DNA from: an uncultured virus (IMG/VR IMGVR_UViG_3300027416_000239)
Taxonomy: Duplodnaviria > Heunggongvirae > Uroviricota > Caudoviricetes
DNA: 64,000 bases
IMG/VR virus record: IMGVR_UViG_3300027416_000239
Direction: 5' to 3' (one strand)
Below the pieces are notes generated by a model. It was given only the letters and a program-made list of their open reading frames with translations, ran no database searches and had not been told where the DNA came from. Of the stretch, positions 38,706 through 57,199 are shown piece after piece (positions within the stretch are counted from its first letter, which is position 1; every line of letters begins with the position of its first letter). Both the position numbers and the translations under genes were made by a program.

Positions 38706-38711
38706 AATTTG

Positions 38712-39256: not shown

Positions 39257-39278
39257 GTTTAAAACATTTAATAATTAG

Positions 39279-39716: not shown

Positions 39717-39762
39717 ATTCTATCTATCCAACATGTCAAAGAACCGTATATGGGTTTCCGTG

Positions 39763-39848
39763 TACTACTGGCCGGAATCGAACCGGCACGACCATCACTG
39801 GCCAAGGGATTTTAAGTCCCTCGTGTCTACCTATTTCACCACAGTAGC
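39763..39848 (-). tRNA. tRNA-Leu(TAA)
   Basis: AGGGACTTAAAATCCCT arm, variable arm, GGTTCGATTCC. Confidence 0.92.
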
Positions 39849-43205: not shown

Positions 43206-43265
43206 AACTTGTTTTGATTATACTCTTAATATACGAAAAAGAGTACAGGGAGCCAACTCTATAAC

Positions 43266-43813: not shown

Positions 43814-46156
43814 TTAGTGGCCGTCTCTCCAGTTATAAGAAATCTCAGGAGGTGCTTTTAGAGTTACTCCTTCAAGCTTGGTAGTACTCTCCATAATCTC
43901 TTTTACGATAGGAGCTACAAACTCTGCCTGGTCTTCTGGTACGTTAATGATCAACTGGTCATGTACCTGTGCTTGAACACGGCCGTCGATCCCAAGCTCT
44001 TTCAGCTTGCGATTGATCTGTACTGCCGCTCGGTTTACGACAGCCGCTGCAAGGCTCTGCAGTTGGTAGTTCAAACAGTTATTCAGTCCGTTTCGGTAGT
44101 CACGGTACCATTGTAGTACTTGATCCTTGCCATAACGTTCTGAAAGGTCTTTCCGGAACTTCCAGTCCATGATCTGGTCTCCGAAAGTATCGTACATCTT
44201 TTTAACTTTAGGTAGGTGACGGATACGGCCTACCTTATTCTTAATAAAGCCATGCTCTTTAACCTGCTTACGAGAGTTAATACGCCACTGCTTAAGTTGA
44301 GGAAATCCATTTAGGTAACCATCTACAAGTACTTCGGCTTCTTTCTGAGAGATGCCTAGTGTCATTCCTAGAGCGTAAGCTTCCATACCATATGCAATAC
44401 CGAGGGAGTAAGCCTTAGCTTGGTTACGCTTAACAGGGTCTAACTTCTTAAGGTAGTTAGGAGCTCTCTTATCAGCTGATACTCCGTCAGGGTACTTATC
44501 TCGCTGCTCATCTAGCTTCTCAGTTCTGATAGCAACAGTAGAGTAGAAGTCCCATCCGTTGTTAAAGATCTCCTGAAGGTTAATGTCTCCTGATACAGAA
44601 GCAAAGCAGTGAGGTTCCAATGACTCGTAGTCAGCATCGATAATTTTACGTCCTGGTCCTGAGGTTAAGAAAGCACGGACGATATTAGTATACTTGACGA
44701 TGATAGGAGCATCTTCTCCTTCCTCTTTAGGCTTAGGTAGTTGCTGAGCATCTGAACCATAACGGCCTGATACAGTACCGTTCTGTTTAAAGTAGAAGTA
44801 GTAACGTCCGTCTTCGTGATTATCTACAAAGCGATCGATATAAGTAGACTTAATCTTAAGTAGCTTGTTATAGATACGAAGATTCTCAGCCCATTCGTAG
44901 TCTTTAGAGAGCTCTTCAATCATATCCATGTCAAACTTATCACGACCGGACTTAGTATTAGCTCCTGATACAAGAGGTTTAATACCCATATAGTCAAATA
45001 CAAGTTCACCTAAGTGTTTCTTAGATTGAATGTTGATATACTCCCCATCATTCTTCTCTTTCCATAATGCCATAGAGATTTTAAGTACCTCCATTTCATT
45101 CAGCACATCTAAGTTTCCAGTTAAGAGGTACTCTTTAGCAGGAGAATCTTCTAGCTCTCCTACAGTCTTTTGAGTAATAGAGTACTTACCGGTCTTCTCA
45201 GATTTAGGCAGAGGTAAAGAGTAACGCATAGCTAAGTATTGTGCCCATGTTCCTTTATGAGAAGGTGGGAACTCTTTTAGAGCAGTATCTACAACCCATT
45301 CTTTACCGGCTGGTAGAGCTAGAATAGAGTCAAGTACAATCTTTTTATTCTTCTGAAGATCTTCAATAATCTCTTTCTTAGTCTCTTCTAGTAGCTCTAA
45401 GTCTAAATCTACTCCCATCTCTTCCATAGGAATAGTTACTTCACGGTACAGAGGCATAACTTCCTCTTCAAAGAAGAACTGCTCTAAGTTCTCTTCTTTA
45501 AGTTTCTGAATAAAGTAAGTACATACTCGGAGAGTTAAGTCAGTATCGGCAGCGGCATACTTTGATAGTACGTCCATGTCTGCTTTGTAGATCTCAAAGC
45601 TTTCCTTAGTTACTGAGCCTCCGTTACGTTTGATAGACTCTTTCAGTTCGATCTGCTCTTCGTTAGCAGCCTTCTCTACATCTAGACCGATGTGCTCTTG
45701 AATAGAAATAGCTAGAGGCTTAAGACCGAATACTCCCATACCTGCTCCTTCTTCTTGGACGGTATGTACTAGCAGAGCAGTATCAACCCAGAGACTATCT
45801 AGTAAGTTAACACCGTAGAAGTTCTTAGTAAATCGGCAGTCAAACGATGCGTTGTGCATCACAAGCTTCTTACCGACTAGCATACTTAAGATCTTCTTAG
45901 CTAAGGTATGACAACCGATGCCTTCGATCTGAAGTTCATCTAGAGTCTCAGTAGCGTGATTCCAAGCCATAGTTGGCATATAGAAACCAATACCAATATC
46001 ACCTGAGACGGAGAAGCCGACTACTTTACCCTTACGCATGTTAAGGGAGTCGGTCTCGGTATCGTACGCAATAACGTTTGATTCGTTAATGTGCTGGATG
46101 AGTAGGTTAACAGTTTCCTTATCTGTAACCGTATAATACTTTTTTTCTATCGACAT
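43814..46156 (-). CDS. polA: Family A DNA polymerase with 3'-5' exonuclease
   Basis: DTET, HNASFD, YAAAD exonuclease motifs; TVSGR, DADYESLE, RNQAKAYSLGIAYG, QVHDQ. Confidence 0.93.
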   Translation of the reverse strand: MSIEKKYYTVTDKETVNLLIQHINESNVIAYDTETDSLNMRKGKVVGFSVSGDIGIGFYMPTMAWNHATETLDELQIEGIGCHTLAKKILSMLVGKKLVMHNASFDCRFTKNFYGVNLLDSLWVDTALLVHTVQEEGAGMGVFGLKPLAISIQEHIGLDVEKAANEEQIELKESIKRNGGSVTKESFEIYKADMDVLSKYAAADTDLTLRVCTYFIQKLKEENLEQFFFEEEVMPLYREVTIPMEEMGVDLDLELLEETKKEIIEDLQKNKKIVLDSILALPAGKEWVVDTALKEFPPSHKGTWAQYLAMRYSLPLPKSEKTGKYSITQKTVGELEDSPAKEYLLTGNLDVLNEMEVLKISMALWKEKNDGEYINIQSKKHLGELVFDYMGIKPLVSGANTKSGRDKFDMDMIEELSKDYEWAENLRIYNKLLKIKSTYIDRFVDNHEDGRYYFYFKQNGTVSGRYGSDAQQLPKPKEEGEDAPIIVKYTNIVRAFLTSGPGRKIIDADYESLEPHCFASVSGDINLQEIFNNGWDFYSTVAIRTEKLDEQRDKYPDGVSADKRAPNYLKKLDPVKRNQAKAYSLGIAYGMEAYALGMTLGISQKEAEVLVDGYLNGFPQLKQWRINSRKQVKEHGFIKNKVGRIRHLPKVKKMYDTFGDQIMDWKFRKDLSERYGKDQVLQWYRDYRNGLNNCLNYQLQSLAAAVVNRAAVQINRKLKELGIDGRVQAQVHDQLIINVPEDQAEFVAPIVKEIMESTTKLEGVTLKAPPEISYNWRDGH

Positions 46157-46159
46157 ATA

Positions 46160-46684
46160 TTAAAGATAAGAAATTTCATTTAGATTACAAACTAGGTAGT
46201 TTTCTACCAGAGTATTCCAGTTATCATTAGTCGGACGAATTGCACGCTTCTTGCGACTACCCATCGTCATCCAATTAATCATTTTACGCTCACGGCGTTC
46301 GTGTAGATTAAATGCGCTTTGGTTAACTATTACCTGACGAGGTACGTTAAATACTTCTCCTGTATCACAGACGATAAGTAGAAAATCAAAATCTAAGTCT
46401 GAATGTAGAGTTACAAGATTTCGTTCTGAAGATTTAGGTACGTGCATCTTAGGGCTAAGATACTTTGTAGAATACCTTCCAAGCTTACCTGTACCGTCGA
46501 TATTATTTTCACGAGGTGGTGCTGGTGTGTATTCTTTATCTCCAATAATTTCTTTTATAACTAACAAGGCTACTGCTTCACCGTACAGGCCACTTAGCTG
46601 ATCAGGGTCAAGTTTAAGCTTTGATGCTAGCTCTCTACATTTATTAAGCGTCTCAATCAGCTCTACTACTTCAGTCTTACTCAT
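46160..46684 (-). CDS. Putative PD-(D/E)XK-type endonuclease
   Basis: GLYGE...IDG...STK...FDFLLIV pattern; own promoter. Confidence 0.45.
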   Translation of the reverse strand: MSKTEVVELIETLNKCRELASKLKLDPDQLSGLYGEAVALLVIKEIIGDKEYTPAPPRENNIDGTGKLGRYSTKYLSPKMHVPKSSERNLVTLHSDLDFDFLLIVCDTGEVFNVPRQVIVNQSAFNLHERRERKMINWMTMGSRKKRAIRPTNDNWNTLVENYLVCNLNEISYL

Positions 46685-46717
46685 AACCGTTACTTTTTAA
46701 TACTCTATAAAGATAAG

Positions 46718-46736
46718 AAAGGAGCCCGTAGGCTCC
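46718..46736 (-). terminator. Probable terminator hairpin
   Basis: GGAGCC-TACG-GGCTCC followed by TTTCTT, after queF. Confidence 0.55.
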
Positions 46737-46739
46737 AAC

Positions 46740-47654
46740 TTATTGACGTAAAGTTTTTCTCATTCGTTTACCCGAATCAGTAAACCATCCTGGGATCATA
46801 TCTTTATGTGTAGCTCGAATAGGATTAATATCCAATCCACCACGACGTGTATATAAACATGCTACCATAAGCTTCTCAGGTTGATAGGCTTGCTGAAGGT
46901 GAGTAAATACCATCTCACAGATCTCTTCATGGAAGTGAGATACTGTACGGTGACTAACGATATACTTGGCTAGTGACTCAAGCTTAATTGAGTTATGACC
47001 TTGCATATGGATGTAGATATCACCCCAGTCAGGCTGGTTAGTTACTCGGCAGTTACTACGTAGCAAGTTAGAACTTACTTTAGTTGTAACAGACATTGGA
47101 AGATTGCCGCCAATCTCAAGCTGACCTGCATCAGACTTAAAGGCTGTAAACTCAATGTTGTCAAGGTTTACTGTTGCACCTAAGTCTGTAAAGCCATCAA
47201 ACTCAAACTCTGGAGTGTATGTATTGCCGAAGAAGGTACAGGTTACATTTCCTCCTAGTAGGTCAGTTAGGTCTTTAGCTACTGTTGTTTCAATCTCCTT
47301 GATACACTCCTTAGCTGTCTGACCCATCGGAGTCATATTCAAAGAGTTCAAGTATAATTTGATAGACTTTGACTCAACGTGAAACTCTGTATTAGCTGGG
47401 CATACAATCTTTAACATACCTGCTACAGGCTGACCTTTTTTAGTAATAGCTGAAACTTCATAAGCGTTCCAAGCATCTACTCCTACGAATGGAAGATTAC
47501 TCTCCTCAATTCCGTAAGCTTCTCGGTTTAAATAACGAGGTACTGCTACTAGCAACTCAGCATTGTACTGATCTGAGTAACCTTCTCCACCTACCTTACC
47601 GAGGTGTTTACCAGCAATCTCAACGACTGCATTGTAGTTCTTTACTTCTTCCAT
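46740..47654 (-). CDS. queF: 7-cyano-7-deazaguanine reductase (bimodular QueF)
   Basis: ESKSIKLYLNS QueF motif, CRVTNQPDWG, FHEE, YTRRGGLDINP. Confidence 0.92.
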   Translation of the reverse strand: MEEVKNYNAVVEIAGKHLGKVGGEGYSDQYNAELLVAVPRYLNREAYGIEESNLPFVGVDAWNAYEVSAITKKGQPVAGMLKIVCPANTEFHVESKSIKLYLNSLNMTPMGQTAKECIKEIETTVAKDLTDLLGGNVTCTFFGNTYTPEFEFDGFTDLGATVNLDNIEFTAFKSDAGQLEIGGNLPMSVTTKVSSNLLRSNCRVTNQPDWGDIYIHMQGHNSIKLESLAKYIVSHRTVSHFHEEICEMVFTHLQQAYQPEKLMVACLYTRRGGLDINPIRATHKDMIPGWFTDSGKRMRKTLRQ

Positions 47655-48173
47655 TTACTTTATGTATTTTAAAATTTGATCTACTCGCTGCAATGGTGAG
47701 CCAGTAACAGTTAAATAATGACGGTCAGTTAAATCGAGTTGATACTTAAACTCTTCATCAATAATCTTTCTCCAAGCTTCATCTACACTGCGCTGACCAT
47801 CATCCACAGCATCGAATTCAATAGGGAAATAAATATAGTGCGTATACTCATCCTGCACTCTAGTCCAAGTATCTTCAATAAAGTCTAAGCCTTGAGAAGA
47901 TAAAGCAGGCATATGCTTAGAGTATACAACTAAGTCTAGATAACAACGATCTAGAATCAAACTATGAGGCTTAAGCAAAGCCTCTAAGTGAAAAGAAGAA
48001 ATAGCTAACTGAGTCTCAGTAGTACCTGCTTCGTTAATAGGAAAGCCAAACTTAGCTACCGTACGAGTACTTTCGTTAATAAACTCATACTTAGGTAGTT
48101 TAGCTTTCAATAACTCATACACAGTAGTCTTACCAGTACTACTAGCTCCTACTAATGCAATTCGTCTAACCAT
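47655..48173 (-). CDS. P-loop nucleotide kinase (AAA_28/dNMP-kinase-like)
   Basis: GASSTGKTT, LDRCYLD, DDGQR. Confidence 0.75.
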   Translation of the reverse strand: MVRRIALVGASSTGKTTVYELLKAKLPKYEFINESTRTVAKFGFPINEAGTTETQLAISSFHLEALLKPHSLILDRCYLDLVVYSKHMPALSSQGLDFIEDTWTRVQDEYTHYIYFPIEFDAVDDGQRSVDEAWRKIIDEEFKYQLDLTDRHYLTVTGSPLQRVDQILKYIK

Positions 48174-48712
48174 AGTTTATTATGTAAAAATTCTATCCAC
48201 ATCTCTACTGATGTGTCATGTAAGATACGAAAAATATCGTTCTTAGGCAACATCTTATGTATACTTTCTCGCTCCACTAGAACTTCTCCTTCATCTACTC
48301 CGGCAGTTACTTTGTGAATAACACAGCCAGCAGTCTTATAGTTACCTTCCCAGGCTCTATATTGAGGATCTTTTCCTTTTAGGTCTGGATATTTAGTAAT
48401 CAATCCTGGATGTCCGTTATAGATTTCATAGCGATTACAGATAGAAGCAGGCATTACTCTTAACCATCCGTGTAAAGTTACAACAGGGTTATCACTTATT
48501 GCACTCATCAGCCATACAAGCTCATGCTCCTCAGGTCTATTCTGAGTATACTTTAATAGGTCTGTAGGAATCTCAGGATGTATAGTACGTAAATGAGAAG
48601 GCCTGATATTAGTAATAATAAGGTCAGGCCAGCGACCTAACTGCTTACTAACCTGAACAATCTCAGATCCAGTCTGACTAAAGAATGCTATCCACGGACG
48701 AGTTGCTACCAT
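48152..48712 (-). CDS. PurN-like formyltransferase (candidate preQ1 formyltransferase, DpdN-like)
   Basis: FFSQTGS, LHGWLRV, NGHPG, GCVIHKV, VDEGEV. Confidence 0.8.
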   Translation of the reverse strand: MVATRPWIAFFSQTGSEIVQVSKQLGRWPDLIITNIRPSHLRTIHPEIPTDLLKYTQNRPEEHELVWLMSAISDNPVVTLHGWLRVMPASICNRYEIYNGHPGLITKYPDLKGKDPQYRAWEGNYKTAGCVIHKVTAGVDEGEVLVERESIHKMLPKNDIFRILHDTSVEMWIEFLHNKLWLDELH

Positions 48713-49505
48713 GTGCGAACCATCTAAAGCGTTGAACATTATAAACTGCTGAAGTAACCTGCTCAGAGGTAGGAGTCATATTAATCATCTCAAATAACTT
48801 GATTGATGCCTTATCCCACAACCCTTGATCTTTATACTCGATTCCCAACAAACCGTGTACTACTGGGTTAGAAGTATCTAGTGAGTAGATCCAATCGTAG
48901 TCTTTATAGAAAGCAAACTCTTGAGGAAGTCCACAGCCTAGTAGGTGGTGAGGGATATCTGGGTTGATTACTCCATCACGTAACATCTTACCTAAGAGCA
49001 CAACTCTGCCTAGCATCCAGCTAACATACTTGTTAGGGTGTGGTACGAGCTGTTCGTAATAACTGTAATCGAAAGAGATAGCCACCATATCTACCTTTGC
49101 TATATTAATCATGTAGTCATAGCAATTGATAAGCTCAGAGTAAGTCTTTCCCTGTAGTACTCCAATCTTTTTACTAGGTGCTGCTAGATGATCTGCATAC
49201 TTAAAGTTCCACTCAGCCATATTAGCACAAGTACGCTTTACATTCTCTAATGCATCAGGTACGATGTACCAGGTAGGCTTTAAATAATCAATCCAGAAAG
49301 CAAAGCGTTCTGAATCAAAAGCTTTTCCTAATTCAAAGATAGAGTTATCGAGAATAATCTCTCGTCCTTTATCTCGTGCTTCTACAAACTTATCTAAATA
49401 AGTTTCGTTCTCTTCAAAGAGATGTACTAAAGCGTAATCATAATCCGTATACTGCTGAATAGTGTCAAAGCTAGCAATAGGACTCTCGTGTGCAATCTTA
49501 ACCAT
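48678..49505 (-). CDS. TGT/DpdA-like TIM-barrel protein (candidate deazaguanine transglycosylase)
   Basis: ILDNS, VPD, VLQG, HHLLG and SLDTS resemble the TGT/DpdA DSG, PD, QG, HxLG and SxDS motifs; que-gene context. Confidence 0.65.
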   Translation of the reverse strand: MVKIAHESPIASFDTIQQYTDYDYALVHLFEENETYLDKFVEARDKGREIILDNSIFELGKAFDSERFAFWIDYLKPTWYIVPDALENVKRTCANMAEWNFKYADHLAAPSKKIGVLQGKTYSELINCYDYMINIAKVDMVAISFDYSYYEQLVPHPNKYVSWMLGRVVLLGKMLRDGVINPDIPHHLLGCGLPQEFAFYKDYDWIYSLDTSNPVVHGLLGIEYKDQGLWDKASIKLFEMINMTPTSEQVTSAVYNVQRFRWFAHGSNSSVDSIL

Positions 49506-49695
49506 TGGCGTTTCCTAAATCGTTAAATAACTTGTTTAATTCTAACATACTATCTTGAAGTTTACCTAAATTATCTTCAAGCTCTTTAGCGCTCTTGATC
49601 TGCAAGGCTTCCTCTACTACTTCTAAAGGTACAACCCAGCGTTGTAGGTCTTCTAAGAAGATACTATTTTGTTCTACCAGTTCTTTTGGACTCAT
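49498..49695 (-). CDS. Hypothetical protein
   Basis: 65-aa operonic ORF. Confidence 0.6.
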   Translation of the reverse strand: MSPKELVEQNSIFLEDLQRWVVPLEVVEEALQIKSAKELEDNLGKLQDSMLELNKLFNDLGNANG

Positions 49696-50198
49696 TGCTT
49701 AGCGTTTTCGATTTCTTCTGGAGTAAAGAACTGCTCAAGATTAGGAGCGAAGTAGTTAATAGATTTCATAACCTTATCGTCCGCTTTGCGATAAACAACA
49801 TAACGGTTTCCCACCTTACGGAAGTAACACTCGCCGTGCTGTTGAGAACGGAGAGCAATAGTCTCTTCTGCTTCTTCTACAGTCGCACAGCTCTTAGACA
49901 TATTCGATGCCTGTACCTCTCGGTAAGCTGGTACGATCTTATTCTTCAATCCAAACACCATGGTAGCATTTCCAATAGCTACGTAAAGTAGATCGCAGAT
50001 AGCATCTAGTACTTCTACAATATCTTTCTCTTCAATAGCGTGTGCTAGTTCGTCAGTCTCTTCTTTAATAAAATCTACTACGAAGTTAGTAAGTTTCTTA
50101 TCATTAGGAATAATAGGAGTGTAATTGTTCGGCTTACCGAACGTATCGTTGAAGATCTCTACTTCGTCGATAAATGGGACACTTTTTGCTCGTTTCAT
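49692..50198 (-). CDS. MazG-like/PRA-PH (all-alpha) NTP pyrophosphohydrolase
   Basis: EETDE...EVLDAICDLLYV...EVQASNMSK. Confidence 0.85.
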   Translation of the reverse strand: MKRAKSVPFIDEVEIFNDTFGKPNNYTPIIPNDKKLTNFVVDFIKEETDELAHAIEEKDIVEVLDAICDLLYVAIGNATMVFGLKNKIVPAYREVQASNMSKSCATVEEAEETIALRSQQHGECYFRKVGNRYVVYRKADDKVMKSINYFAPNLEQFFTPEEIENAKQ

Positions 50199-50905
50199 TT
50201 GCATGCGTAACCTTTAACAAATTCATAAAATTCTGCTCGTGCTGAGTCTTCGTACATAAAGCTACCTGATAGCTTAGAAGTCTTCATTGACGCACCAGCG
50301 TGTTTAGTACCGCGGCATGATACACAATTGTGAGTAGCTTCTACCATAACTGCTACACCTACATTACCTTCACAAACAGTATGAACTGCATTATGAATAG
50401 CAACAGTAAGCTGCTCTTGAATAGCACCTCTACGTCCGAAATGCTCTACAATACGATTGAGCTTAGATAGACCGATTACCTTACCTCCAGGACCTGGAAT
50501 GTAAGCAATATGAACTCGACCTTGAATAGTCTGGTGGTGATGCGAACACATCGAGGTCAAAGGAATATTACCCTCAAATACAATACCATCATAACCATCA
50601 GCAGGGAAGGCTGTGATCTCAGGCATAGGATTGAATCGTCCTGCCCATAAGTCGTTTACATAAGCCTTAGCTACTCGACGAGGAGTATCAGATGAGTTAG
50701 GGTCATCACGCCAGTCACATCCTAGAGCATCTAGGAATTCTCCGAATGCCTTTGCAGCATTCTCAATAATAGTATGCTTCTCTTGATCTGTTAAGTGCAT
50801 AGAGTTCATAGAATGAACTTTAAACTTCTCAGCCAGTTGAGAAGAGACACCATTAGCGAACCCGGCTTGAGCGAGTTCTACATCATAACGTTTTTTATCT
50901 GCCAT
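50195..50905 (-). CDS. folE: GTP cyclohydrolase I
   Basis: TPRRVAK, SMCSHH, GLSKLNR, QEQL, HNCVSCRG. Confidence 0.95.
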   Translation of the reverse strand: MADKKRYDVELAQAGFANGVSSQLAEKFKVHSMNSMHLTDQEKHTIIENAAKAFGEFLDALGCDWRDDPNSSDTPRRVAKAYVNDLWAGRFNPMPEITAFPADGYDGIVFEGNIPLTSMCSHHHQTIQGRVHIAYIPGPGGKVIGLSKLNRIVEHFGRRGAIQEQLTVAIHNAVHTVCEGNVGVAVMVEATHNCVSCRGTKHAGASMKTSKLSGSFMYEDSARAEFYEFVKGYACK

Positions 50906-50908
50906 ATA

Positions 50909-50940
50909 ATTTGTTTTTTTAGGTGGTGCTTCGACACCTC
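50909..50940 (-). ncRNA. Candidate preQ1-I riboswitch aptamer upstream of folE
   Basis: AGGUG-UCGAAGCAC-CACCU-AAAAAAAC; 5-bp P1, UCGnAG..AC loop, A-rich tail; lies between promoter and ATG. Confidence 0.65.
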
Positions 50941-50962
50941 TTATTAATATACGAAAACTATT

Positions 50963-51469
50963 TCAGAGTGCAAACACACTTCTGTAATTTCTTGCATAAC
51001 CTTTATCGTTATCCATTCCAAAGCCTACTACCCATTCATCCTTGATAGTGAATGCATGATAGGAAGGTACTGGGGGTATCCTAGAAGTTTCTCTAGTCAG
51101 TAGAGTAACAATATTAATCGAGGCTGGGTGTTTGACCTGAAGGTATTCAATCACAGCATCCATTGTATTACCCGAATCGTAAATGTCGTCTACGATATAG
51201 ACGTGCTTTCCTTTAACAGGCGTCTCTAAGTCTTTGGTGATCTGAATATCACCTTGTTTCTTTTTACTGACGTATGATCTTATTCTCATAAAATCACATT
51301 CTACGTCTACTGTAATGTTGCGTACTAGGTCTGCATAGAACATAAATGCTCCATTCAATAACCCTACCATAACGATTGGAGTTTTATCTCCATTGTGCTC
51401 TGCTGAGATCTTCTTAGCGATGATCTTAGTTTGGATATCAATATCCTTTGCGTCAATTAACTGTTGCAT
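50963..51469 (-). CDS. hpt: Hypoxanthine/guanine phosphoribosyltransferase
   Basis: LLNGAFMFYADL, SY, IVDDIYDSGNT, WVVGFGMD. Confidence 0.9.
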   Translation of the reverse strand: MQQLIDAKDIDIQTKIIAKKISAEHNGDKTPIVMVGLLNGAFMFYADLVRNITVDVECDFMRIRSYVSKKKQGDIQITKDLETPVKGKHVYIVDDIYDSGNTMDAVIEYLQVKHPASINIVTLLTRETSRIPPVPSYHAFTIKDEWVVGFGMDNDKGYARNYRSVFAL

Positions 51470-51845
51470 ACTTTAATCTAATTCTATCTGAGATTGGAAT
51501 TGGTTCATTATTTTCATCAATACGTACAAACTTAATCTTAGTGGAGAGTATTACCGACTGACTTCCTGAGTATACGTTATGTGCTCTAGCTTCAAGATAG
51601 AGAGTTAAAGACGTATTTCCAACTTCTGCTACCTTTCCATAAATTTTTAACAACTGACCTTCTTTGGCTGGTTTCTTAAAAAGACATTCGTCTATCTTGA
51701 TAGTAACCATTCTAGGAGTATCAGCTACCTCCATTGCCATAGCTGCTCCAGCAGCATCCAACCAGGCTAACAGCTTACCTCCAAAGAGGTTAGCATGAAA
51801 GCCGAGGTCAGATTTCTTAATAGGATGCGTACTAATTAATTGCAT
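51453..51845 (-). CDS. Hotdog-fold acyl-CoA thioesterase (YciA-like)
   Basis: NLFGGKLLAWLD, FKKP, VGNTS, FVRID. Confidence 0.85.
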   Translation of the reverse strand: MQLISTHPIKKSDLGFHANLFGGKLLAWLDAAGAAMAMEVADTPRMVTIKIDECLFKKPAKEGQLLKIYGKVAEVGNTSLTLYLEARAHNVYSGSQSVILSTKIKFVRIDENNEPIPISDRIRLKYATVN

Positions 51846-52455
51846 TTCTGCAAGGACATTTATAATCTGAGAGCTCTGATGTTACAGGTTTCTCGTTCTT
51901 AAAATAGTAACATTCTCGGCGATTTGCAACTTTTAGTTCCTTATAGTATCCGGAAGGGATAGCAGCACCGCCAGGTACTCTTTCAGGATTAGTTGAGAAT
52001 TCTACTCGGATAAAGACTTGTACTTCGTGTCCTAATGCTAATTCTCTTTCTCGAGTCTCTAGCTTCTTCCATACACCTCTATTGAGAGATTGGTGCTGCA
52101 AGGAAGAGTTAACGTATGTAAATGTCTCCAATAGCATTTCACGGGTACAGTTAAAGTCTGCGGCAGGAGCCATATGACCTTTGTCCCATTCGTTGGCTAC
52201 ATAGTCATCGTTATCGGAAGTATGAATTCCTTTTTCTTTGTGGAAGTCCATTCCTGATCTAGAAGCAGTACCTGTAGGACAAGCTACACCGTAACGTACT
52301 GATAAAGGATTCTCTAGAGGTTCTGAATACCAGATTCTAAAGTAAGGAGTGTTCCATTCAACGCTGTCTCTTAAAGATTTCTGACCAGAGGCTGTAAAGG
52401 AGTAAACCGAGAATGCCACCCATAACAAGAAAGTAAAGTGCTGCCATTTTTTCAT
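51832..52455 (-). CDS. Secreted DNA/RNA non-specific endonuclease
   Basis: Signal peptide; DKGHMAP, LNRGVWKKLE, IPSGYYK. Confidence 0.88.
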   Translation of the reverse strand: MKKWQHFTFLLWVAFSVYSFTASGQKSLRDSVEWNTPYFRIWYSEPLENPLSVRYGVACPTGTASRSGMDFHKEKGIHTSDNDDYVANEWDKGHMAPAADFNCTREMLLETFTYVNSSLQHQSLNRGVWKKLETRERELALGHEVQVFIRVEFSTNPERVPGGAAIPSGYYKELKVANRRECYYFKNEKPVTSELSDYKCPCRNAIN

Positions 52456-52457
52456 AA

Positions 52458-53105
52458 TTAATAGTTTAGTGATTTTGAGATTACTGGGAATTGTTCGATA
52501 AAGATCTTCTTGATCTCTTTTGCTACATCTTGAATCTCTTTCTGAGCATGAGCATCATCTCTGAGATCTAAGAAGTGGATCCATGAACGAATAGAACCGG
52601 TCATGTGAATCTTAGTTTTAGTAGATAGTGGCAATACCATTCGAGCTACTTCTCTTGCTACACCTTCATCAAGGAGTCGCTTATAAAGATCTTGGGAAGC
52701 TCTAAAGTGTTTACCGATCTGAGCTGAAGCTGCAGTACTGTATCCGGCATAGAATACGTCTGGGTTAAATACTTCAGTGGAGCTTTGTCTATTATCTTCA
52801 GCTTGTTTTCTTAGCTCTACACTCTCAAACATACCGTCAATTAAGCTTACATCCTGGTAACGTTGTGAGAACTCTTGGTAGGTAAAAGAGCGGTGACGAA
52901 TTAACTGAATACCAATAGCTTTAGAAGTCTCAATCTCTACAGACATATATCCGTGCTCGAATGGAGACCAATGCTTATGCTTGATAAGGTAGTGTAGTAG
53001 CCTTTCAGGCTTCTCTACCTTGTCGGTACGTTTAGAGGATACTCTAGCAATTTTTACAATTGCATTCTCCGCGTCCGGAGTTACATGATTTAGGGTTACT
53101 TTCAT
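52458..53105 (-). CDS. thyX: Flavin-dependent thymidylate synthase
   Basis: HWSPFEH, QLIRHRSFTYQEFSQRY, EVARMVLP, HAQKEI. Confidence 0.95.
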   Translation of the reverse strand: MKVTLNHVTPDAENAIVKIARVSSKRTDKVEKPERLLHYLIKHKHWSPFEHGYMSVEIETSKAIGIQLIRHRSFTYQEFSQRYQDVSLIDGMFESVELRKQAEDNRQSSTEVFNPDVFYAGYSTAASAQIGKHFRASQDLYKRLLDEGVAREVARMVLPLSTKTKIHMTGSIRSWIHFLDLRDDAHAQKEIQDVAKEIKKIFIEQFPVISKSLNY

Positions 53106-53287
53106 ATTTGTTGATATTCAATTTTTGGGATCTCTCTACAAAAATAGAGTAGACCGTCTTTACGGAAGGTATGTGTACAAGACCAGTACTGTTTAAGAAT
53201 TTCAACATCCCATTGACGATCCTCTCTAAGTACTCTCTGAACTTCATACCAGTCATCATTTAATGTTATTATATCTTTTCTTCTCAT
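53102..53287 (-). CDS. Hypothetical protein
   Basis: Operonic, 61 aa. Confidence 0.6.
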   Translation of the reverse strand: MRRKDIITLNDDWYEVQRVLREDRQWDVEILKQYWSCTHTFRKDGLLYFCREIPKIEYQQI

Positions 53288-53535
53288 TTATATTCTAATC
53301 CGAAATGCTTATAGTTAGCATGTACAGATGCTTGATCACCCATCCTAATAGCCCATTCTTCACTGTCCCAAATAGCTTCTACTGGGCAAGCTGGAATGCA
53401 AGCTCCGCAATCAATACATTCATCTGGGTTAATGAACATTTGCTGTAGGTCCTCGTATATACAGTCAACAGGACATACATCCATACATCCACTGTCTTTA
53501 ACATCTATACACTTAGAACCTATAATATAACTCAT
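53284..53535 (-). CDS. Ferredoxin (7Fe/2x[4Fe-4S] type)
   Basis: CIDVKDSGCMDVCPVDCI and CIDCGACIPACPVEAI. Confidence 0.92.
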   Translation of the reverse strand: MSYIIGSKCIDVKDSGCMDVCPVDCIYEDLQQMFINPDECIDCGACIPACPVEAIWDSEEWAIRMGDQASVHANYKHFGLEYK

Positions 53536-53894
53536 TTCCAGAGTACTTGAACACAGATTAATACTAGAGCTAGAAGGAGACTAATAGCAGTCTTAGTGGA
53601 TATCGGCTCTCCCATATAGTACCATACGCAGAAGGCATAAACTATCATTCCTGTACCGAATCCTATAAAACGAGCAGGCCATAGTAAACCGTCAAAGCCA
53701 GCGACTGCTGTTCTGGTAGCCCAGATAAAAATGAACGAAATAGGTATACCAAATAGAGCAACAGCCCATTCGTACTTTTTAAACCAGCTCCAGATAAACT
53801 GTCCGTTAAGCTGGTAGAAGGTTATTACTTGTCCTAGAAAGAACAGACTAGCTCCAAGAAGTATACTCTTTATATTCAAAACGTGTATTTTCAT
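53532..53894 (-). CDS. 4-TM small membrane protein (SMR/DMT-like)
   Basis: Four hydrophobic helices; GE motif before the last helix. Confidence 0.6.
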   Translation of the reverse strand: MKIHVLNIKSILLGASLFFLGQVITFYQLNGQFIWSWFKKYEWAVALFGIPISFIFIWATRTAVAGFDGLLWPARFIGFGTGMIVYAFCVWYYMGEPISTKTAISLLLALVLICVQVLWK

Positions 53895-54029
53895 TTGAGG
53901 CTACTAAGCCCTGTTTGGTTAATGCATCTAATTTATAGCCGTAGATACTTAGGGCTTTAATAACGTGTGCTGGTTCGATAGCGCTATTACTCCACATCAA
54001 CCATAAAGCTCCTAAGTATCCGTTTGGCA

Positions 54030-54806
54030 TTATACTTCTCTCTTAGTATCGTAGGCAATGATGTGATCACGTCCGGTCATATTGTAACCGTGCTCGGCAC
54101 ACATCTCAAATACGATTGGGTACATTTCAATTAAAGTCTCACGAGTATCACCTGCAGGCATAACAAAAGTCTTGTCTTTAGGAATATTCATCTCAACCCT
54201 AAATGCTTCAATCTCTACTAGATTCGCTGCGCTACCGTCCCATACCGGCTTAAAGTGGTAATCAGTATGATAGTCCAAAGTCTGACGGATAGCATCTTTG
54301 TTGATACGGAACTTGTTATGTTGCTTAATCATCTTCTCATCTGCAATAGCGCCTTGAGGTGTAACAGCTCCTACTACGGGTACGCTATTAGAGAACTTAG
54401 GAGATAGAGAGATAAGATCAAGAGGATAGTCCGTCTCAAGGAAGTGAGAACCTTCAGTCTCAATAGTAACAATAATACCTCTTTCTTTAGCAAAGTGAGT
54501 AATCTCATTTACTAAGGCTGGGTGCATTGTTGGGCTACCTCCTGTTAGCATCATCTCCTTTACGTGAGGATTCTCATCGTAAATCTTAATAATATCGTTA
54601 AATGAATAACCACCTTTCTCTGGATGGATAGAGGTATACCAGCTATCACACCAACCTCCTTCACCGAAGTAGCAGCGGTGAGTACATCCTGTAGTACGTA
54701 CAGCGATAGTAGGACGTCCAAAACGACTACCCTCTGATTGTACACATCGGTAAAGCTCTACAATCGGCAGTACCTTATTATAATCTTCAATTCTCTTAAG
54801 CGCCAT
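54030..54806 (-). CDS. queE: 7-carboxy-7-deazaguanine synthase (radical SAM)
   Basis: VQSEG, RTTGCTHRC...WCDS, LTGGSP, IETEG, SLSPK; start MALKR. Confidence 0.9.
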   Translation of the reverse strand: MALKRIEDYNKVLPIVELYRCVQSEGSRFGRPTIAVRTTGCTHRCYFGEGGWCDSWYTSIHPEKGGYSFNDIIKIYDENPHVKEMMLTGGSPTMHPALVNEITHFAKERGIIVTIETEGSHFLETDYPLDLISLSPKFSNSVPVVGAVTPQGAIADEKMIKQHNKFRINKDAIRQTLDYHTDYHFKPVWDGSAANLVEIEAFRVEMNIPKDKTFVMPAGDTRETLIEMYPIVFEMCAEHGYNMTGRDHIIAYDTKREV

Positions 54807-55254
54807 AGATTGCTGAGTTTTTGTGGTTCTCCATAAATTTAACTTTAATGACCTTAACTCGGCCGTCTGTCTCTGTCTGTACGAAGTCATTTAGCTTGTG
54901 GTAAAGAAATTCAGCAAATTTCTCTGCACCTACTGCCTCTACTACTCGTAACTGAATAACGCCTCTGTCGGCCATATCTCTGAAGTTATCTAGTTCAGGA
55001 TCGTCTTCTGCTACAACTACAGTATGATCGAACATATGCTCCATCCATTCTTTAGGTTGCATACCGTCGATCAGGTTCTTAGCTCGCTTCATACCTCCGA
55101 AGTCCCATACCCAGTTACGGTGATCGAGATCTCCTTCAAACGTTACTTCAAACTCTACATCATAGCCGTGTAGGTACTGACAGTGTGTAGTATTCGCTTT
55201 CCATTGACGGAAGCAAGTACTAAAGCCATCAAACTTCTTTCTTGACTTATACAT
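54796..55254 (-). CDS. queD: 6-carboxytetrahydropterin synthase
   Basis: HCQYLHGY, WDFG, FDH, AEKFA, E...NSA. Confidence 0.9.
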   Translation of the reverse strand: MYKSRKKFDGFSTCFRQWKANTTHCQYLHGYDVEFEVTFEGDLDHRNWVWDFGGMKRAKNLIDGMQPKEWMEHMFDHTVVVAEDDPELDNFRDMADRGVIQLRVVEAVGAEKFAEFLYHKLNDFVQTETDGRVKVIKVKFMENHKNSAIYGA

Positions 55255-55507
55255 TTGTAAAATTATTATATTGTTCAATATAGTGACTTAATGGCTTAGC
55301 GCCAACTGTACGAGCAAATTCTTTTCCAGAATCATCAATCAGTACTACAGTAGGTACACTGCGGACTGTGTATTCCATCGTTAGGAGCTCTTCCGTATCG
55401 ATGTTAATTTTTTCTACAGCAATTCCTTCTGCTGCTACTTTTTCCATTGTTGGACCTAACATTCTACAAGGACCGCACCAAGGTGCTGAGAAATACAAAT
55501 ACTTCAT
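55247..55507 (-). CDS. Thioredoxin
   Basis: WCGPC; VRSVPT. Confidence 0.92.
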   Translation of the reverse strand: MKYLYFSAPWCGPCRMLGPTMEKVAAEGIAVEKINIDTEELLTMEYTVRSVPTVVLIDDSGKEFARTVGAKPLSHYIEQYNNFTNV

Positions 55508-55710
55508 ACTAATTCTTCGATTATGCCGACTGCCTCACTCAAGACCAGTACCACCATTGCTGTTGGGATATCAACAATAAGCAGTGCGTAACCAAGAATA
55601 CGGACTCCGGATTTAATAAATGAGATAATTTGATGCCATTTCTGATCAGGCATCTTTTCAATGTTCTTACTTTTCGGAAGAACAGGCTCTACTAATAACT
55701 GTTTTTTCAT
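55504..55710 (-). CDS. Small membrane protein
   Basis: Hydrophobic C-terminal half. Confidence 0.6.
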   Translation of the reverse strand: MKKQLLVEPVLPKSKNIEKMPDQKWHQIISFIKSGVRILGYALLIVDIPTAMVVLVLSEAVGIIEELV

Positions 55711-56300
55711 TCTACTATAACTTTAATTGTATCGTTTACTATTATCTGAGTACCTAGATCGTAGTTATAACGCGTTCTTGTGAAGACATTAATCGTATCT
55801 CCCACCATCTCTTCAAACACCAGTACTTCACACCGGGGCTGGTATGTGTGCATAGCATTCACAAAGTTTGTACTTCCAAACGTATAACCTACTGCATTTA
55901 TAATGTAGTTAGGATTTGTAATATAGATTGTAGTATCTCCTGTTGAGATAGGGTAATTAAAGCTTGGGGAAGTATATTGGGAAGTAAATGGAGAGTACAG
56001 AGGTATTTGCATAGCAATGGTATCAAATACATACCAGGTATCGCTATCATATACTACTTGAAGTAGCGGTACTCCATTTATAACATATTGAGGATGTAGG
56101 GAATCTAACTGACCGATAACCTGGAAGTAATTTATACCTGAATATTGTAAATGCCAGTATCCGTCTTGATAATAAGTTCCAGGATGTTGAATAGTATCTA
56201 CTCTATGAATAGTAGTACATTCCTGACAAGGTTCAGGAACATAGGGCTCAATCGTTTCACAAGCCCAGAGCAGAGGTAATAATAGTAGTAACTTTTTCAT
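55707..56300 (-). CDS. Lipoprotein of unknown function
   Basis: MKKLLLLLPLLWAC lipobox. Confidence 0.7.
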   Translation of the reverse strand: MKKLLLLLPLLWACETIEPYVPEPCQECTTIHRVDTIQHPGTYYQDGYWHLQYSGINYFQVIGQLDSLHPQYVINGVPLLQVVYDSDTWYVFDTIAMQIPLYSPFTSQYTSPSFNYPISTGDTTIYITNPNYIINAVGYTFGSTNFVNAMHTYQPRCEVLVFEEMVGDTINVFTRTRYNYDLGTQIIVNDTIKVIVE

Positions 56301-56331
56301 CCGGTGTTTTTATAGTGGTGCTCCGACACTC
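56301..56331 (-). ncRNA. Candidate preQ1-I riboswitch aptamer heading the lipoprotein-trx-queD-queE unit
   Basis: AGUG-UCGGAGCAC-CACU-AUAAAAAC-ACCGG-AUG; the loop can pseudoknot with CCGG next to the start codon. Confidence 0.65.
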
Positions 56332-56347
56332 TTAATATAAGAATAAA

Positions 56348-56373
56348 TAGGGAGGGAGACAAGCTCCCCCCTA
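56348..56373 (-). terminator. Terminator hairpin after queC
   Basis: TAGGGGGGAG...CTCCCTCCCTA followed by TTTATT on the minus strand. Confidence 0.6.
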
Positions 56374-56374
56374 A

Positions 56375-57199
56375 TTAATTTGCGTGTGCTGCTAAAACTT
56401 TTTCAACATGCTCACGTGCTACCTCCCAGCTCACTGGGCCGGTCTCATCAGCGTACGCTACAGGATCAGGTCGTCCTAGCTTAATAAAAGCTTCAATACG
56501 CTCTACTGAAGAAGCTGATTTGTAGTCTGAGTACCAAGTCCAGGCATTAGTCTCTGGACGGTGATAGTACTTGATTGGCTTATAAGAGGTGTTAGTACGC
56601 TTATAAACTTCATCAAAGTCTATTCCTAGCTTCTCACATAATACCAGTCCGTCTTCTAGAATAGTAAACTTATCGCCTTCAAGATAAGGAGTCCAATAAG
56701 ATACGCGCTCAGCGTCCCAGTTACCAGTGCGGAAAGCAGCGTCATCTGCATCCCGAAATTCCTGTCGGCAGTCCGGATAGATCGCATGATCACCAGCATG
56801 AATGCCCAACGCAATGGAAGTTTCTTCCTGAGTTTCATTTGCAATAGAAAGTGCTACAGCTTGAGAAATTGAACTGAAGATTTTGTTTCGGTTCGGTACA
56901 ACAGTAGCTTTCATATTCTCTTCTGCGTAATGACCTTCAGGTACTTCAGCACCACCTGTTACTAGAGCCGAGTTGAGCAGGTCAACCAAGCCGTCTAGTT
57001 TGATTACTCGGTAATTAACAGAGTGACCGTTATCACTCAAGTACTTTACCAACTCTTGAGCTCTTTCAAGCTCTACTCTGTGCTTTTGACCGTAATCAAA
57101 AGACATTGCTGTTACTGTATCAAACTCTTTAAGAGCTTTTAGAAGTAACGTAGAGGAGTCCATCCCTCCTGAAAGACTAACAACAACGTGTTTTGCCAT
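56375..57199 (-). CDS. queC: 7-cyano-7-deazaguanine synthase
   Basis: SLSGGMDS, FDYGQKH, VPNRN, YPDCR. Confidence 0.93.
   Translation of the reverse strand: MAKHVVVSLSGGMDSSTLLLKALKEFDTVTAMSFDYGQKHRVELERAQELVKYLSDNGHSVNYRVIKLDGLVDLLNSALVTGGAEVPEGHYAEENMKATVVPNRNKIFSSISQAVALSIANETQEETSIALGIHAGDHAIYPDCRQEFRDADDAAFRTGNWDAERVSYWTPYLEGDKFTILEDGLVLCEKLGIDFDEVYKRTNTSYKPIKYYHRPETNAWTWYSDYKSASSVERIEAFIKLGRPDPVAYADETGPVSWEVAREHVEKVLAAHAN

Follow-up and report, generated by a model that had tools for sequence, protein, structure and literature searches.

A DpdA3-DpdN gene cluster for replacement of guanine by formyl-preQ1 in an immuto-like phage, with a proposed nucleotide-level route to the modified base

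The window, by which we mean the whole 64,000-nucleotide stretch analysed here from the uncultured virus record IMGVR_UViG_3300027416_000239, carries on its minus strand, between positions 43814 and 57199, the genes of a 7-deazaguanine pathway. A first-pass annotation had listed QueC, QueD, QueE, HGPRT, FolE, a MazG-like protein, DpdA3, DpdN, a kinase, QueF and PolA, and all were found among the ORFs with the help of Pfam, PHROGs and NCBIfam. Read in the direction of the genes, QueC (7-cyano-7-deazaguanine synthase, 56375..57199; PF06508, E 2.6e-38; QueC-like PHROG, E 1.2e-42) is followed by a terminator-like hairpin (56371-56351), a 197-aa protein (55707..56300) with no match in Pfam, PHROG or NCBIfam, a thioredoxin (55247..55507; PF00085, E 4e-15) and QueD, of the 6-carboxytetrahydropterin synthase type (54796..55278; PTPS, E 6e-16; QueD-like PHROG, E 8.6e-40). 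The radical-SAM 7-carboxy-7-deazaguanine synthase QueE (54030..54890; Radical_SAM, E 6.5e-7) matches the QueE-like PHROG from residue 33 (E 1.4e-48); its real start probably lies downstream of 54890, in which case the overlap with QueD would vanish. Beyond it lie a 4Fe-4S ferredoxin (53284..53535; best Fer4-family E 1.2e-10) that might serve QueE as reductant, the thymidylate synthase ThyX (52458..53105; PF02511, E 4.6e-49), a non-specific DNA/RNA endonuclease (Endonuclease_NS, 51832..52455; PF01223, E 6e-24) that could be a source of dNMPs from host DNA, a 4HBT/hotdog thioesterase (51453..51845; PF03061, E 3.7e-14) and a 168-aa hypoxanthine-guanine phosphoribosyltransferase, HGPRT (50963..51469; TIGR01203).

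The genes from FolE to QueF then form a tight run, abutting or overlapping by 4-62 nt. They encode FolE (GTP cyclohydrolase I, 50195..50905; PF01227, E 1.6e-43), the MazG-like all-alpha NTP pyrophosphohydrolase (49692..50204; PRA-PH, E 6e-12; phrog_671, nucleotide pyrophosphohydrolase, E 2.6e-29), a 65-aa protein (49498..49695) that matches no family in Pfam, PHROG or NCBIfam and is kept in close relatives (family 20, in 3/35 of the loci surveyed below), DpdA3 (48678..49505), the PurN-like formyltransferase DpdN (48152..48739; Formyl_trans_N, E 1.5e-10), an AAA_28 P-loop kinase (47655..48173; AAA_28, E 6e-15) and a two-domain preQ0 reductase, QueF (46740..47654; QueF_N, E 3e-31; QueF, E 3.8e-19). 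By the established chemistry of these families, FolE, QueD, QueE and QueC make preQ0, which QueF reduces to preQ1.

Directly 3' of QueF stands a second terminator-like hairpin (46721..46736; a 6-bp stem, 5 of its pairs G-C, with a T-rich tail), one of 25 terminator-like sites in the region as against 9.1 +/- 3.1 in shuffles. Past it come a 174-aa protein, hyp174 (46160..46684), with no Pfam, PHROG or NCBIfam match, and PolA, a family A DNA polymerase with a 3'-5' exonuclease domain (43814..46156; DNA_pol_A, E 7.6e-57; DNA_pol_A_exo1, E 4.6e-11) and the sole PF00476 match across the 124,656-bp record. The nearest ESM Atlas clusters to hyp174 are DUF6998, Bsp6I, PvuII and DpnI-like (score 0.94, TM 0.62), and as a lead from this structural comparison hyp174 is possibly a PD-(D/E)XK restriction-endonuclease-like nuclease. 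The suggestion that PolA is a dedicated, DpoZ-like partner of the pathway was not supported: the hairpin parts QueF from hyp174 and PolA, the DpdA1 gene of Enterobacteria phage 9g adjoins a DNA polymerase too, and other DpdA3 clusters adjoin PolB.

A Pfam search with DpdA3 gave no match. The protein is, however, 65% identical to DpdA3 of Flavobacterium phage immuto_2-6A, annotated as a 'DNA guanine transglycosylase', and its predicted structure has the TGT/DpdA fold that had been expected of this ORF (AF2 pLDDT 95.8; Foldseek TGT E 3.8e-8); VIA ranks DpdA (7ui4, Z 17.3) first, then ArcTGT (Z 17.1) and TGT (Z 16.6). Homology and predicted fold thus identify it as a minimal TGT-fold guanine/7-deazaguanine base-exchange enzyme. 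D53 and D210 are invariant among 43 family members, and both conserved Asp motifs are retained; the net charge is acidic (median -8 in 43 sequences), which is weak evidence on the route discussed below, PolA being acidic as well. In DpdN, N108, H110 and D149 are invariant in 22 sequences and the conserved core begins at W16 of the ORF. Its best 15 matches among solved structures are all PurN GAR transformylases (top E 2.8e-15), in alignments that span the PurN N-terminal loop. The kinase, 68% identical to immuto_68, gives a model (AF2 pLDDT 92) that Foldseek places with the ribosylnicotinamide kinase NadR (TMq 0.79), with further matches to YorR, to deoxyadenosine and deoxyguanosine kinases and to thymidylate kinases.

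The same gene order is found in immuto_2-6A, where it runs GroEL-GroES-PolA-...-QueF-kinase-PurN-like-...-DpdA-...-NTP pyrophosphohydrolase-...-FolE-PRTase...QueE..QueD, and immuto DNA is reported to contain 345,000 fdPreQ1 per 10^6 nucleotides with the dG peak absent, fdPreQ1 replacing all G (Cui et al. 2023, PMC10516641). Because of this shared order, the close identity of DpdA3 and kinase and the measured immuto DNA, it is near certain that 43814-57199 is an fdPreQ1 guanine-replacement system in an immuto-like phage whose host belongs to the Bacteroidota. The complete 7-deazaguanine DNA-modification cluster proposed at the outset is therefore borne out, as the DpdA3 plus DpdN type, and the earlier statement that such a pair had been linked to formyl-preQ1 DNA in a Flavobacterium phage agrees with what Cui et al. 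2023 report. The two phages are nonetheless different, their DNA matching at 74% over just 273 bp. The window encodes a full HGPRT where the immuto_2-6A PRTase has 131 aa, and ThyX in place of the annotated ThyA; hyp174 is not homologous to the gene that adjoins PolA in immuto_2-6A; and fdPreQ1, measured in immuto_2-6A DNA, is predicted for the window phage. A pathway that feeds only queuosine precursors to tRNA, leaving the DNA canonical, would suit the tRNA-Tyr(GTA) encoded in the window, which has a queuosine-type anticodon. This is scarcely credible for a cluster orthologous and syntenic to one from a phage whose DNA is reported as fully substituted; moreover, a tRNA-type TGT (PF01702) was not found in the 124,656-bp record, and queuosine synthesis makes no use of DpdN. 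The gene set for swapping every G for formyl-preQ1 is already known; the further analysis concerns the route.

Bearing on that route is a survey of 35 DpdA3 loci, made non-redundant by clustering at 70% identity and each flanked by 3 kb or more on either side (8-10 kb fetched), set against 17 non-redundant DpdA1 (9g-like) controls from one phage subfamily with ~60-kb genomes. The commonest DpdA3 neighbour within 4 kb is the AAA_28 kinase (27/35 loci), ahead of QueF (26), DpdN (23), FolE (22), QueE (21), QueC (19) and QueD (17), and in four of the eight loci without AAA_28 a DUF3310 protein fills the slot between DpdN and QueF. A kinase-type gene of either kind lies within 1.4 kb of DpdA3 in 31/35 loci (median distance 523 bp, maximum 1368 bp) but in only 1/17 controls (AAA_28 0, DUF3310 1, MazG 0, DCD 0); the Fisher test gives p = 7e-9, which overstates the case because the loci are phylogenetically non-independent. 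Exceptions are locus L167, where no kinase was found within 8 kb, and L162, where it is 6.9 kb away. Mapped onto the tree of DpdA3, DUF3310 requires four changes of label, at least three of these being forced by well-supported branches, and judged from this tree the AAA_28 and DUF3310 kinase types have been swapped at least three times in one gene slot. DUF3310 is the C-terminal domain of T7 gp1.7, an annotated nucleotide kinase (residues 122-184, E 4.5e-23). The window kinase is an AAA_28 P-loop protein instead, and the small DUF3310 proteins, found in the kinase slot of 4/35 loci, are without the first two thirds of gp1.7; that they have only a 60-residue domain in common with it weakens the kinase evidence. 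The domain also occurs in lactococcal SaV proteins, reported in another role. DpdA3 itself is fused to DUF3310 in P0256 and P0257 (PHROG 'nucleotide kinase'; P0275 falls slightly below the cut-off), to DpdN in P0216 and P0225 and to QueF in P0272 and P0274, and every fusion partner is a small-molecule enzyme.

The linkage extends to more distant systems. In the Campylobacter phage CP220 (dADG), gp056 is a DpdA3 37% identical to that of the window, and its neighbour gp057 is orthologous to the kinase of the window (32% identical, E 2e-22). The Cellulophaga phage phiST (dDG) has a DpdA3 homologue, found when a relative was run in tblastn (E 7e-10), with the AAA_18-type P-loop kinase CGPG_00066 directly upstream (29.8 bits vs 29.4), plus a MazG-like gene. 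An AAA_18/33 P-loop kinase type occupies the same position in Chryseobacterium phage MA9V-3, and a P-loop protein does so even in phages as small as phiST (79 kb) and BSTP12 (55 kb). The pathways of CP220 and phiST end earlier, at CDG-derived bases, without QueF and DpdN; phiST has DpdL, and CP220 carries an HD + AAA_33 fusion protein upstream, which may be an end-healing enzyme outside the pathway. Both phages show complete G replacement, as in immuto (Cui et al. 2023).

The system had been said to look pre-replicative, and kinase linkage, kinase swaps and DpdA3 fusions lend that idea comparative support. On these grounds we favour, as somewhat the likelier reading, synthesis of the modified base on free nucleotides before replication. 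Exchange in finished DNA is a less probable but real contender, in which DpdA3 would be a very efficient DNA transglycosylase replacing every G in new phage DNA with preQ1 or fpreQ1, DpdN would act on the free base or on DNA, and the kinase, MazG and HGPRT would be general nucleotide-supply genes of one early operon. Membership of DpdA3 in the TGT/DpdA superfamily, its retained Asp motifs and, as its nearest solved structure, the DNA preQ0 insertase DpdA all suit such exchange; the last point weakens synthesis on free nucleotides, and we know of no TGT-superfamily enzyme that acts on a free nucleotide, which also counts against it. The same is true of the kinase exceptions at L167 and L162 and of the dNTP hydrolases, which lie near DpdA3 in just 17/35 loci (MazG-like in 6, DCD/dUTPase-like in 11, within the fetched 8-10 kb), and nucleotide-metabolism genes are frequent in large phages, the DpdA1 controls having smaller genomes. 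Post-replicative exchange was also the proposal of Cui et al. 2023, who argued from a DpdA in every modified phage and in whose main text 'kinase' and 'phosphoribosyltransferase' each occur 0 times. It leaves unexplained, however, the 31/35 versus 1/17 kinase linkage, its persistence in small phages, the repeated refilling of the slot by an unrelated kinase-type domain and the DpdA3-DUF3310 fusions. DpdA1 of 9g and bacterial DpdA, with the same superfamily fold and preQ0 genes, insert preQ0 or G+ post-replicatively and are reported to modify DNA partially (0.1-30% for other DpdA types), whereas replacement is complete and context-free in all three measured DpdA3 phages; attempts to demonstrate DpdA3 activity in E. 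coli failed, and in cells infected by CP220 the ADG nucleoside was reported in free form (Cui et al. 2023). These three observations support synthesis on free nucleotides, as do the matches of the kinase model to nucleoside and nucleotide kinases and the PurN enzymes that are the nearest solved relatives of DpdN.

An HPRT had earlier been put forward as a maker of the modified nucleotide. A PRTase would then join preQ0 or preQ1 to PRPP, and the kinase and a phage RNR would carry the ribonucleotide to the deoxy-triphosphate, with DpdA3 in a side role. PRTases are indeed frequent near DpdA3 (HGPRT-type in 6/35 loci, small PRTase in 6/35), and positions 62587-63963 of the window match a class II-type RNR large subunit. 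Yet the window protein passes the TIGR01203 equivalog cut-off (153.6 bits vs 150) and aligns with solved Hpt proteins (E 6.6e-31 to 6.4e-30), among them, by entry code, E. coli Hpt, with the acidic PRPP-loop motif conserved. The Asp of this loop makes contact with N7 of the purine ring, an atom that is missing from 7-deazapurines. PRTases moreover occur in 3/17 DpdA1 loci, where in-DNA exchange is accepted; most DpdA3 loci have none within 4 kb, DpdA3 being universal by construction; and DpdA3 and its fusions would go unexplained. We consider this route improbable. The small PRTases near the DpdA1 controls fit salvage of guanine set free by any DpdA, and HGPRT probably recycles guanine released by DpdA3 into GMP. 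Of the three proteins singled out earlier as likely uncharacterised, the kinase and the dNTP hydrolase keep that standing, whereas HPRT looks canonical. The acidic EExxE...DxxxD residues of the MazG-like hydrolase are invariant in seven homologues, no informative relative was found among solved structures, and dGTP is its proposed substrate.

The 2-aminoadenine (dZ) system of cyanophage S-2L reportedly hydrolyses the competing dNTP, passes the monophosphate to a modifying enzyme, raises the product to the triphosphate with kinases and incorporates it with a polymerase. Our preferred synthesis on free nucleotides resembles this logic, although the S-2L enzymes (PurZ, MazZ, DatZ and DpoZ; PMC8342488) are non-homologous and use a synthetase reaction, where the step proposed here is base exchange with no dedicated polymerase evident. 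The steps after preQ1 would run on free (deoxy)nucleotides rather than finished DNA: the MazG-like hydrolase, together with host-DNA breakdown by Endonuclease_NS, would supply dGMP and lower dGTP; DpdA3 would exchange preQ1 for the guanine of dGMP, or alternatively of deoxyguanosine; and DpdN would formylate the aminomethyl group, much as PurN acts on the nucleotide GAR. The AAA_28 kinase would phosphorylate the modified product and host enzymes would complete the triphosphate, which whichever polymerase the phage has would incorporate opposite C, while HGPRT would return the released guanine through GMP to GTP, feeding FolE again.

The window comes from a 124,656-bp IMG/VR virus record with an estimated completeness of 76%, where it occupies bases 60604-124603 read on the minus strand, and between 40 and 60 kb of the window every gene lies on the minus strand. 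With assignments from Pfam, PHROGs, and NCBIfam, the cluster reads, in transcription order and all on that strand, as QueC (56375-57199; Pfam/PHROGs), a 197-aa protein of no assigned family (55707-56300), a thioredoxin (55247-55507), QueD (54796-55278; Pfam/PHROGs), QueE (54030-54890; Pfam/PHROGs), a ferredoxin (53284-53535), ThyX (52458-53105), a non-specific endonuclease (51832-52455), a 4HBT thioesterase (51453-51845), HGPRT (50963-51469; TIGR01203), FolE (50195-50905; Pfam/PHROGs), a MazG-like hydrolase (49692-50204), a 65-aa protein of no assigned family (49498-49695), the DpdA-like protein DpdA3 (48678-49505), the PurN-like formyltransferase DpdN (48152-48739; Formyl_trans_N), an AAA_28 kinase (47655-48173), QueF (46740-47654; Pfam/PHROGs), a 174-aa protein without a family match, hyp174 (46160-46684), and PolA (43814-46156). 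The preQ1 pathway is complete by both Pfam and PHROGs, with FolE, QueD, QueE, and QueC as well as QueF (five of five) within 46740-57199, and every item of the gene inventory in the first-pass annotation was borne out. From FolE to QueF neighboring genes abut or overlap. Because terminator-like hairpins follow QueC (56371-56351) and QueF (46736-46721), the genes from the one after QueC through QueF apparently form one unit and hyp174 and PolA the following one; a scan for sigma-70 promoters gave no useful signal (42 sites versus 39.8 expected).

The ESM Atlas clusters nearest to hyp174 are restriction-endonuclease-like (DUF6998, Bsp6I, PvuII, and DpnI; score 0.94, TM 0.62), and on such a modeled likeness the protein could be a nuclease directed at host DNA, which contains G, modified phage DNA being immune. 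No homology was found between hyp174 and the gene in the same position in vB_FspM_immuto_2-6A (immuto), a Flavobacterium phage. Genes for Hsp20, GroES, and GroEL (40982-43706, minus strand) lie directly downstream of PolA; in the immuto group, chaperone genes likewise lie by the polymerase, which is PolA, PolB, or PolC, and a divergent second PolA is present (Yutin et al. 2024). A single PF00476 match was found in the 76%-complete record.

Elsewhere on the minus strand, the window carries a protein with a type IX secretion C-terminal sorting domain and a cohesin-like domain (31281-33203) and a full TonB-dependent receptor with Plug and beta-barrel (34627-37164), an unusual auxiliary gene in a phage; judged from sequence, the two point to a Bacteroidota host. 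A 12-kb block (11120-23636) with six glycosyltransferases, three to four methyltransferases, a GDP-mannose 4,6-dehydratase, and an aminotransferase fragment is a predicted phage-borne polysaccharide or glycan synthesis cluster. The window further holds a PD-(D/E)XK nuclease and, next after it, a DUF1599 protein ('nucleotide modification associated domain 1') at 23861-25198, seven tRNA genes (Met, Tyr-GTA, Thr, Pro, Arg, Leu, and Leu; 38631-39848), of which tRNA-Tyr(GTA) has a queuosine-type anticodon, and, at the right window end, a ribonucleotide reductase large-subunit barrel domain (62587-63963, E 6e-98).

The window cluster is syntenic with that of immuto, whose locus also has a DpdN homolog. 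The names DpdA3 and DpdN were coined for such systems, and immuto DNA contains 345,000 formyl-preQ1 deoxynucleosides (fdPreQ1) per 10^6 nucleotides with no dG peak, while modification is full in the DpdA3 phages CP220, phiST, and immuto and at most 30% with other DpdA types (Cui, Hutinet et al. 2023, PMC10516641). It is near certain that the window system is of the fdPreQ1 type, and the cluster is an ordinary immuto-type system of a kind already known; fdPreQ1 was measured in the virion DNA of immuto only, whereas the window phage is known from a metagenomic contig alone. How the modified base comes to replace G is a separate matter. We infer all of the steps downstream of preQ1 synthesis.

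Searches of Pfam and NCBIfam with DpdA3 gave no match. Its AF2 model (pLDDT 95.8, pTM 0.92) retrieved a bacterial TGT at first rank in Foldseek (Z. mobilis TGT, E 3.8e-8, probability 1.00, TMq 0.63-0.67), and an independent wide search with VIA placed the DNA preQ0 insertase DpdA (7ui4) on top (Z 17.3, rmsd 3.3, 234 aligned), followed by the archaeosine TGT ArcTGT (Z 17.1), TGT (Z 16.6), and QTRT2 (Z 15.3), with unrelated TIM barrels scoring no higher than 15.1. The protein is thus predicted to have a TGT-type TIM-barrel fold, on the presence of which the first-pass reading of 48678-49505 had been staked. DpdA3 is 65.4% identical to the immuto 'DNA guanine transglycosylase' over 97% of the query (tblastn, E 2e-114) and 36.7-37.5% identical to CP220-group proteins (tblastn, E about 1e-40; 37% for CP220 gp056), and it matches phrog_19058 (E 7.5e-46). 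D53 of an LDNS motif and D210 of a DTSNP motif are among the residues invariant in a 43-sequence alignment of diverse relatives; judged by these motifs rather than by residue-level superposition, they may be the TGT catalytic aspartates. A DpdA3 profile aligned HLLG...SIDtS with DpdA 7ui4, weakly (E 0.067). The net charge of DpdA3 was set aside as a weak argument against DNA binding, PolA being equally acidic. That the pathway serves tRNA only is very improbable; the tRNA-type TGT (PF01702) was not found in the 124,656-bp record.

The published route, in which DpdA3 would exchange the base in finished DNA after replication, agrees with the likeness to DNA preQ0 insertase, and we grant it perhaps a third of our confidence. 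We lean, modestly, toward synthesis at the nucleotide or nucleoside level. On this pre-replicative route, an enzyme of MazG or DCD type would convert dGTP to dGMP, DpdA3 would swap the base on a free deoxynucleotide or deoxynucleoside, DpdN and others would tailor the swapped base, the kinase would act on the tailored nucleotide, and a polymerase would then incorporate it; HGPRT would return the released guanine to GTP and so to FolE. No published proposal of a nucleotide-level route to 7-deazaguanines was found in the literature searched, which lay mostly outside subscription journals. In the main text of Cui, Hutinet et al. (2023, PMC10516641), 'kinase' and 'phosphoribosyltransferase' are absent and MazG appears for phiST only.

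The neighbors of DpdA3 were surveyed in IMG/VR loci retrieved with the window DpdA3 and two family alignments, with five annotated phages added and the window's own-genome copy left out. Of 182 loci, 180 held a DpdA3 ORF; clustering at 70% identity left 49, of which 14 were dropped for short flanks, leaving 35 with 3 kb or more on either side. AAA_28 kinase genes were the most frequent neighbors within 4 kb (27 of 35), ahead of QueF (26), DpdN (23), FolE (22), QueE (21), QueC (19), and QueD (17). A protein with DUF3310, a domain that forms the C-terminal residues 122-184 of T7 gp1.7 (E 4.5e-23; annotated as a nucleotide kinase in the T7 record), fills the kinase slot between DpdN and QueF in four of the eight loci without AAA_28. 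In a maximum-likelihood phylogeny built from all 35 DpdA3 proteins, these four loci are scattered among AAA_28 loci, the DUF3310 label requiring four changes, at least three of them forced by well-supported branches. The distance between DpdA3 and the AAA_28 or DUF3310 gene has a median of 523 bp and a maximum of 1368 bp. Among the other four loci without AAA_28 in range, the gene directly upstream of DpdA3 encodes an AAA_18/33 kinase in phage MA9V-3 and a 187-aa Walker-A protein with no significant family match in Bacillus phage BSTP12, one locus (L162) has its AAA_28 kinase 6.9 kb away, and in another (L167) no kinase was found within 8 kb. Outside the 35, phiST carries directly upstream an AAA_18 protein (29.8 bits versus a cut-off of 29.4) that is 32% identical to the MA9V-3 kinase. 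In all, an AAA_28 or DUF3310 gene is present in 31 of 35 loci and a MazG- or DCD-like gene in 17.

Distant DpdA3-like genes of BSTP12 (L105 5896-6684, misannotated as 'NadR') and Campylobacter phage CC_R7 (L106 4989-5729, left as 'hypothetical') have que genes and a P-loop protein as neighbors together with a polymerase, which is PolA in BSTP12 and an intein-bearing PolB in CC_R7, and G may be fully modified in these phages too.

As a control, 85 loci were collected with DpdA1 of phage 9g and with its aligned relatives; clustering at 70% reduced them to 18, and the 17 with sufficient flank were scored with the profiles made from DpdA3 neighbors. These 17 loci have no AAA_28, MazG, or DCD gene, one DUF3310 gene, and three small phosphoribosyltransferases (PRTases), and one of them, versus 28 of 35 DpdA3 loci, contains a small ORF whose N-terminus carries a Walker-A motif. 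For the kinase-type gene, the difference (31 of 35 versus one of 17) gives a Fisher p of 7e-9, a value to be read knowing that the control is one subfamily of phages of about 60 kb and that the loci are not independent.

The modeled window kinase (pLDDT 92) best matches the ribosylnicotinamide kinase domain of NadR (TM 0.79, rmsd 3.3), with further matches to YorR, to deoxyadenosine, deoxyguanosine, and deoxycytidine kinases, and to thymidylate kinases; the model makes it a kinase of nucleosides or of nucleotides, the fold not telling which. In dZ-like and T4 hmC-like systems a kinase is dedicated to the modified nucleotide, and the AAA_28 kinase, closely linked to DpdA3, is a candidate for such a role. 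Relatives of DpdA3 number 4189 in a large protein collection, and the family is present on more than 550 viral contigs. Fusions were sought in the 150 best representatives of 1486 clusters (E at most 0.001) and in five longer proteins. DpdA3 is fused to DpdN (P0216 and P0225), to DUF3310 (P0256, 29.3 bits; P0257, PHROG 'nucleotide kinase', E 1.3e-10; P0275, 23.6 bits, just under the cut-off of 24), and to QueF (P0272 and P0274), and every identified metabolic partner has small-molecule substrates. Four proteins (P0122, P0253, P0258, and P0265) have a partner without assignment; the N-terminal 317 residues of P0122 gave no match in the searches run. Selfish elements often target DpdA3, as seen in a LAGLIDADG intein and a homing-endonuclease fusion (P0273 and P0131), and GIY-YIG, HNH, and NUMOD3 genes lie between cluster genes (L142 5346-5954, L129 9618-10283, L066 10846-11565).

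DpdN is a short PurN-like formyltransferase (Formyl_trans_N, E 1.5e-10) with N108, H110, and D149 invariant in 22 sequences, presumably the catalytic Asn-His-Asp triad. Among solved structures, the 15 that match it best are without exception PurN GAR transformylases (best E 2.8e-15), and the alignments as printed begin at an N-terminal S-x-x-G-S loop that we take to be PurN's GAR-phosphate loop. Such a loop fits a phosphorylated small substrate, though not decisively. Five of 35 loci encode a peptide deformylase no more than 4 kb from DpdA3 (at 2805-3338 in L182; PF01327, E 2.5e-39), and four of the five, L129 being the exception, also have DpdN within 4 kb; the gene could be an ordinary auxiliary one, or its product could act on the formyl group.

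Systems of the dZ and T4 hmC type also have an enzyme that removes the competing dNTP, for which the window offers a MazG-like candidate. Its acidic motif is intact; a single-sequence search found no solved relative, and a seven-sequence profile found one MazG-related protein only (E 0.29) and no link to MazZ. Since only 17 of 35 loci have a MazG-like or DCD/dUTPase-like gene close to DpdA3, a dGTP-removing step may not be universal. CP220 gp055 (HD + AAA_33) was not counted as a dGTPase, given its likeness to end-healing HD-Pnk enzymes. A 144-aa family between FolE and DpdA3 (five of 35 loci; L097 9567-10004 and relatives) and a 209-aa family after QueC (nine of 35; L075 14423-15043 and relatives) showed no relation to MazG or DCD profiles in hhalign (probabilities at most 0.4).

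HGPRT had been put forward as a maker of the modified nucleotide, a route that now appears improbable: the protein passes the TIGR01203 equivalog cut-off (153.6 bits versus 150), its residues 4-163 align with solved Hpt proteins (E 6.6e-31), acidic PRPP-loop motif included, and PRTases also lie by DpdA1. Because they accompany DpdA1 loci too, HGPRT is better read as salvaging the guanine freed by any DpdA, which, whichever route holds, would complete a cycle that returns to GTP and FolE. Nor did PolA emerge as the dedicated partner that had been suggested. DpdA3 clusters adjoin PolA (window, immuto, and BSTP12) or PolB (CC_R7 and L168), a terminator-like site separates QueF from PolA, and DpdA1 of phage 9g lies two genes from a DNA polymerase, which rules out polymerase adjacency as a sign of a pre-replicative route. 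A DpoZ-type polymerase co-evolving with the modification, as in dZ-like and T4 hmC-like systems, was not found in the window.

Full replacement of a canonical base makes the DNA of a phage resistant to most restriction enzymes and to some CRISPR nucleases, and its mechanism determines what is required to reproduce it. We see an even chance that DpdA3 is not a DNA transglycosylase but the first free deoxynucleotide or deoxynucleoside exchanger of the TGT superfamily, and that all fully G-replaced genomes (fdPreQ1, dADG, dDG) are made before replication. Tests of DpdA3 activity in E. coli were reported to be unsuccessful (Cui et al. 2023, PMC10516641). If the nucleotide route is true, the minimal transferable module would be DpdA3 and the kinase, possibly with a dGTP hydrolase, rather than DpdA3 alone, a need that would account for these failed heterologous tests, and the module would be an enzymatic source of 7-deaza-dGTP analogs. 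Base exchange on a nucleotide would then be a third biochemical logic among known pre-replicative pathways. As the DpdA3 family is abundant, the choice of route concerns a large share of aquatic phages.
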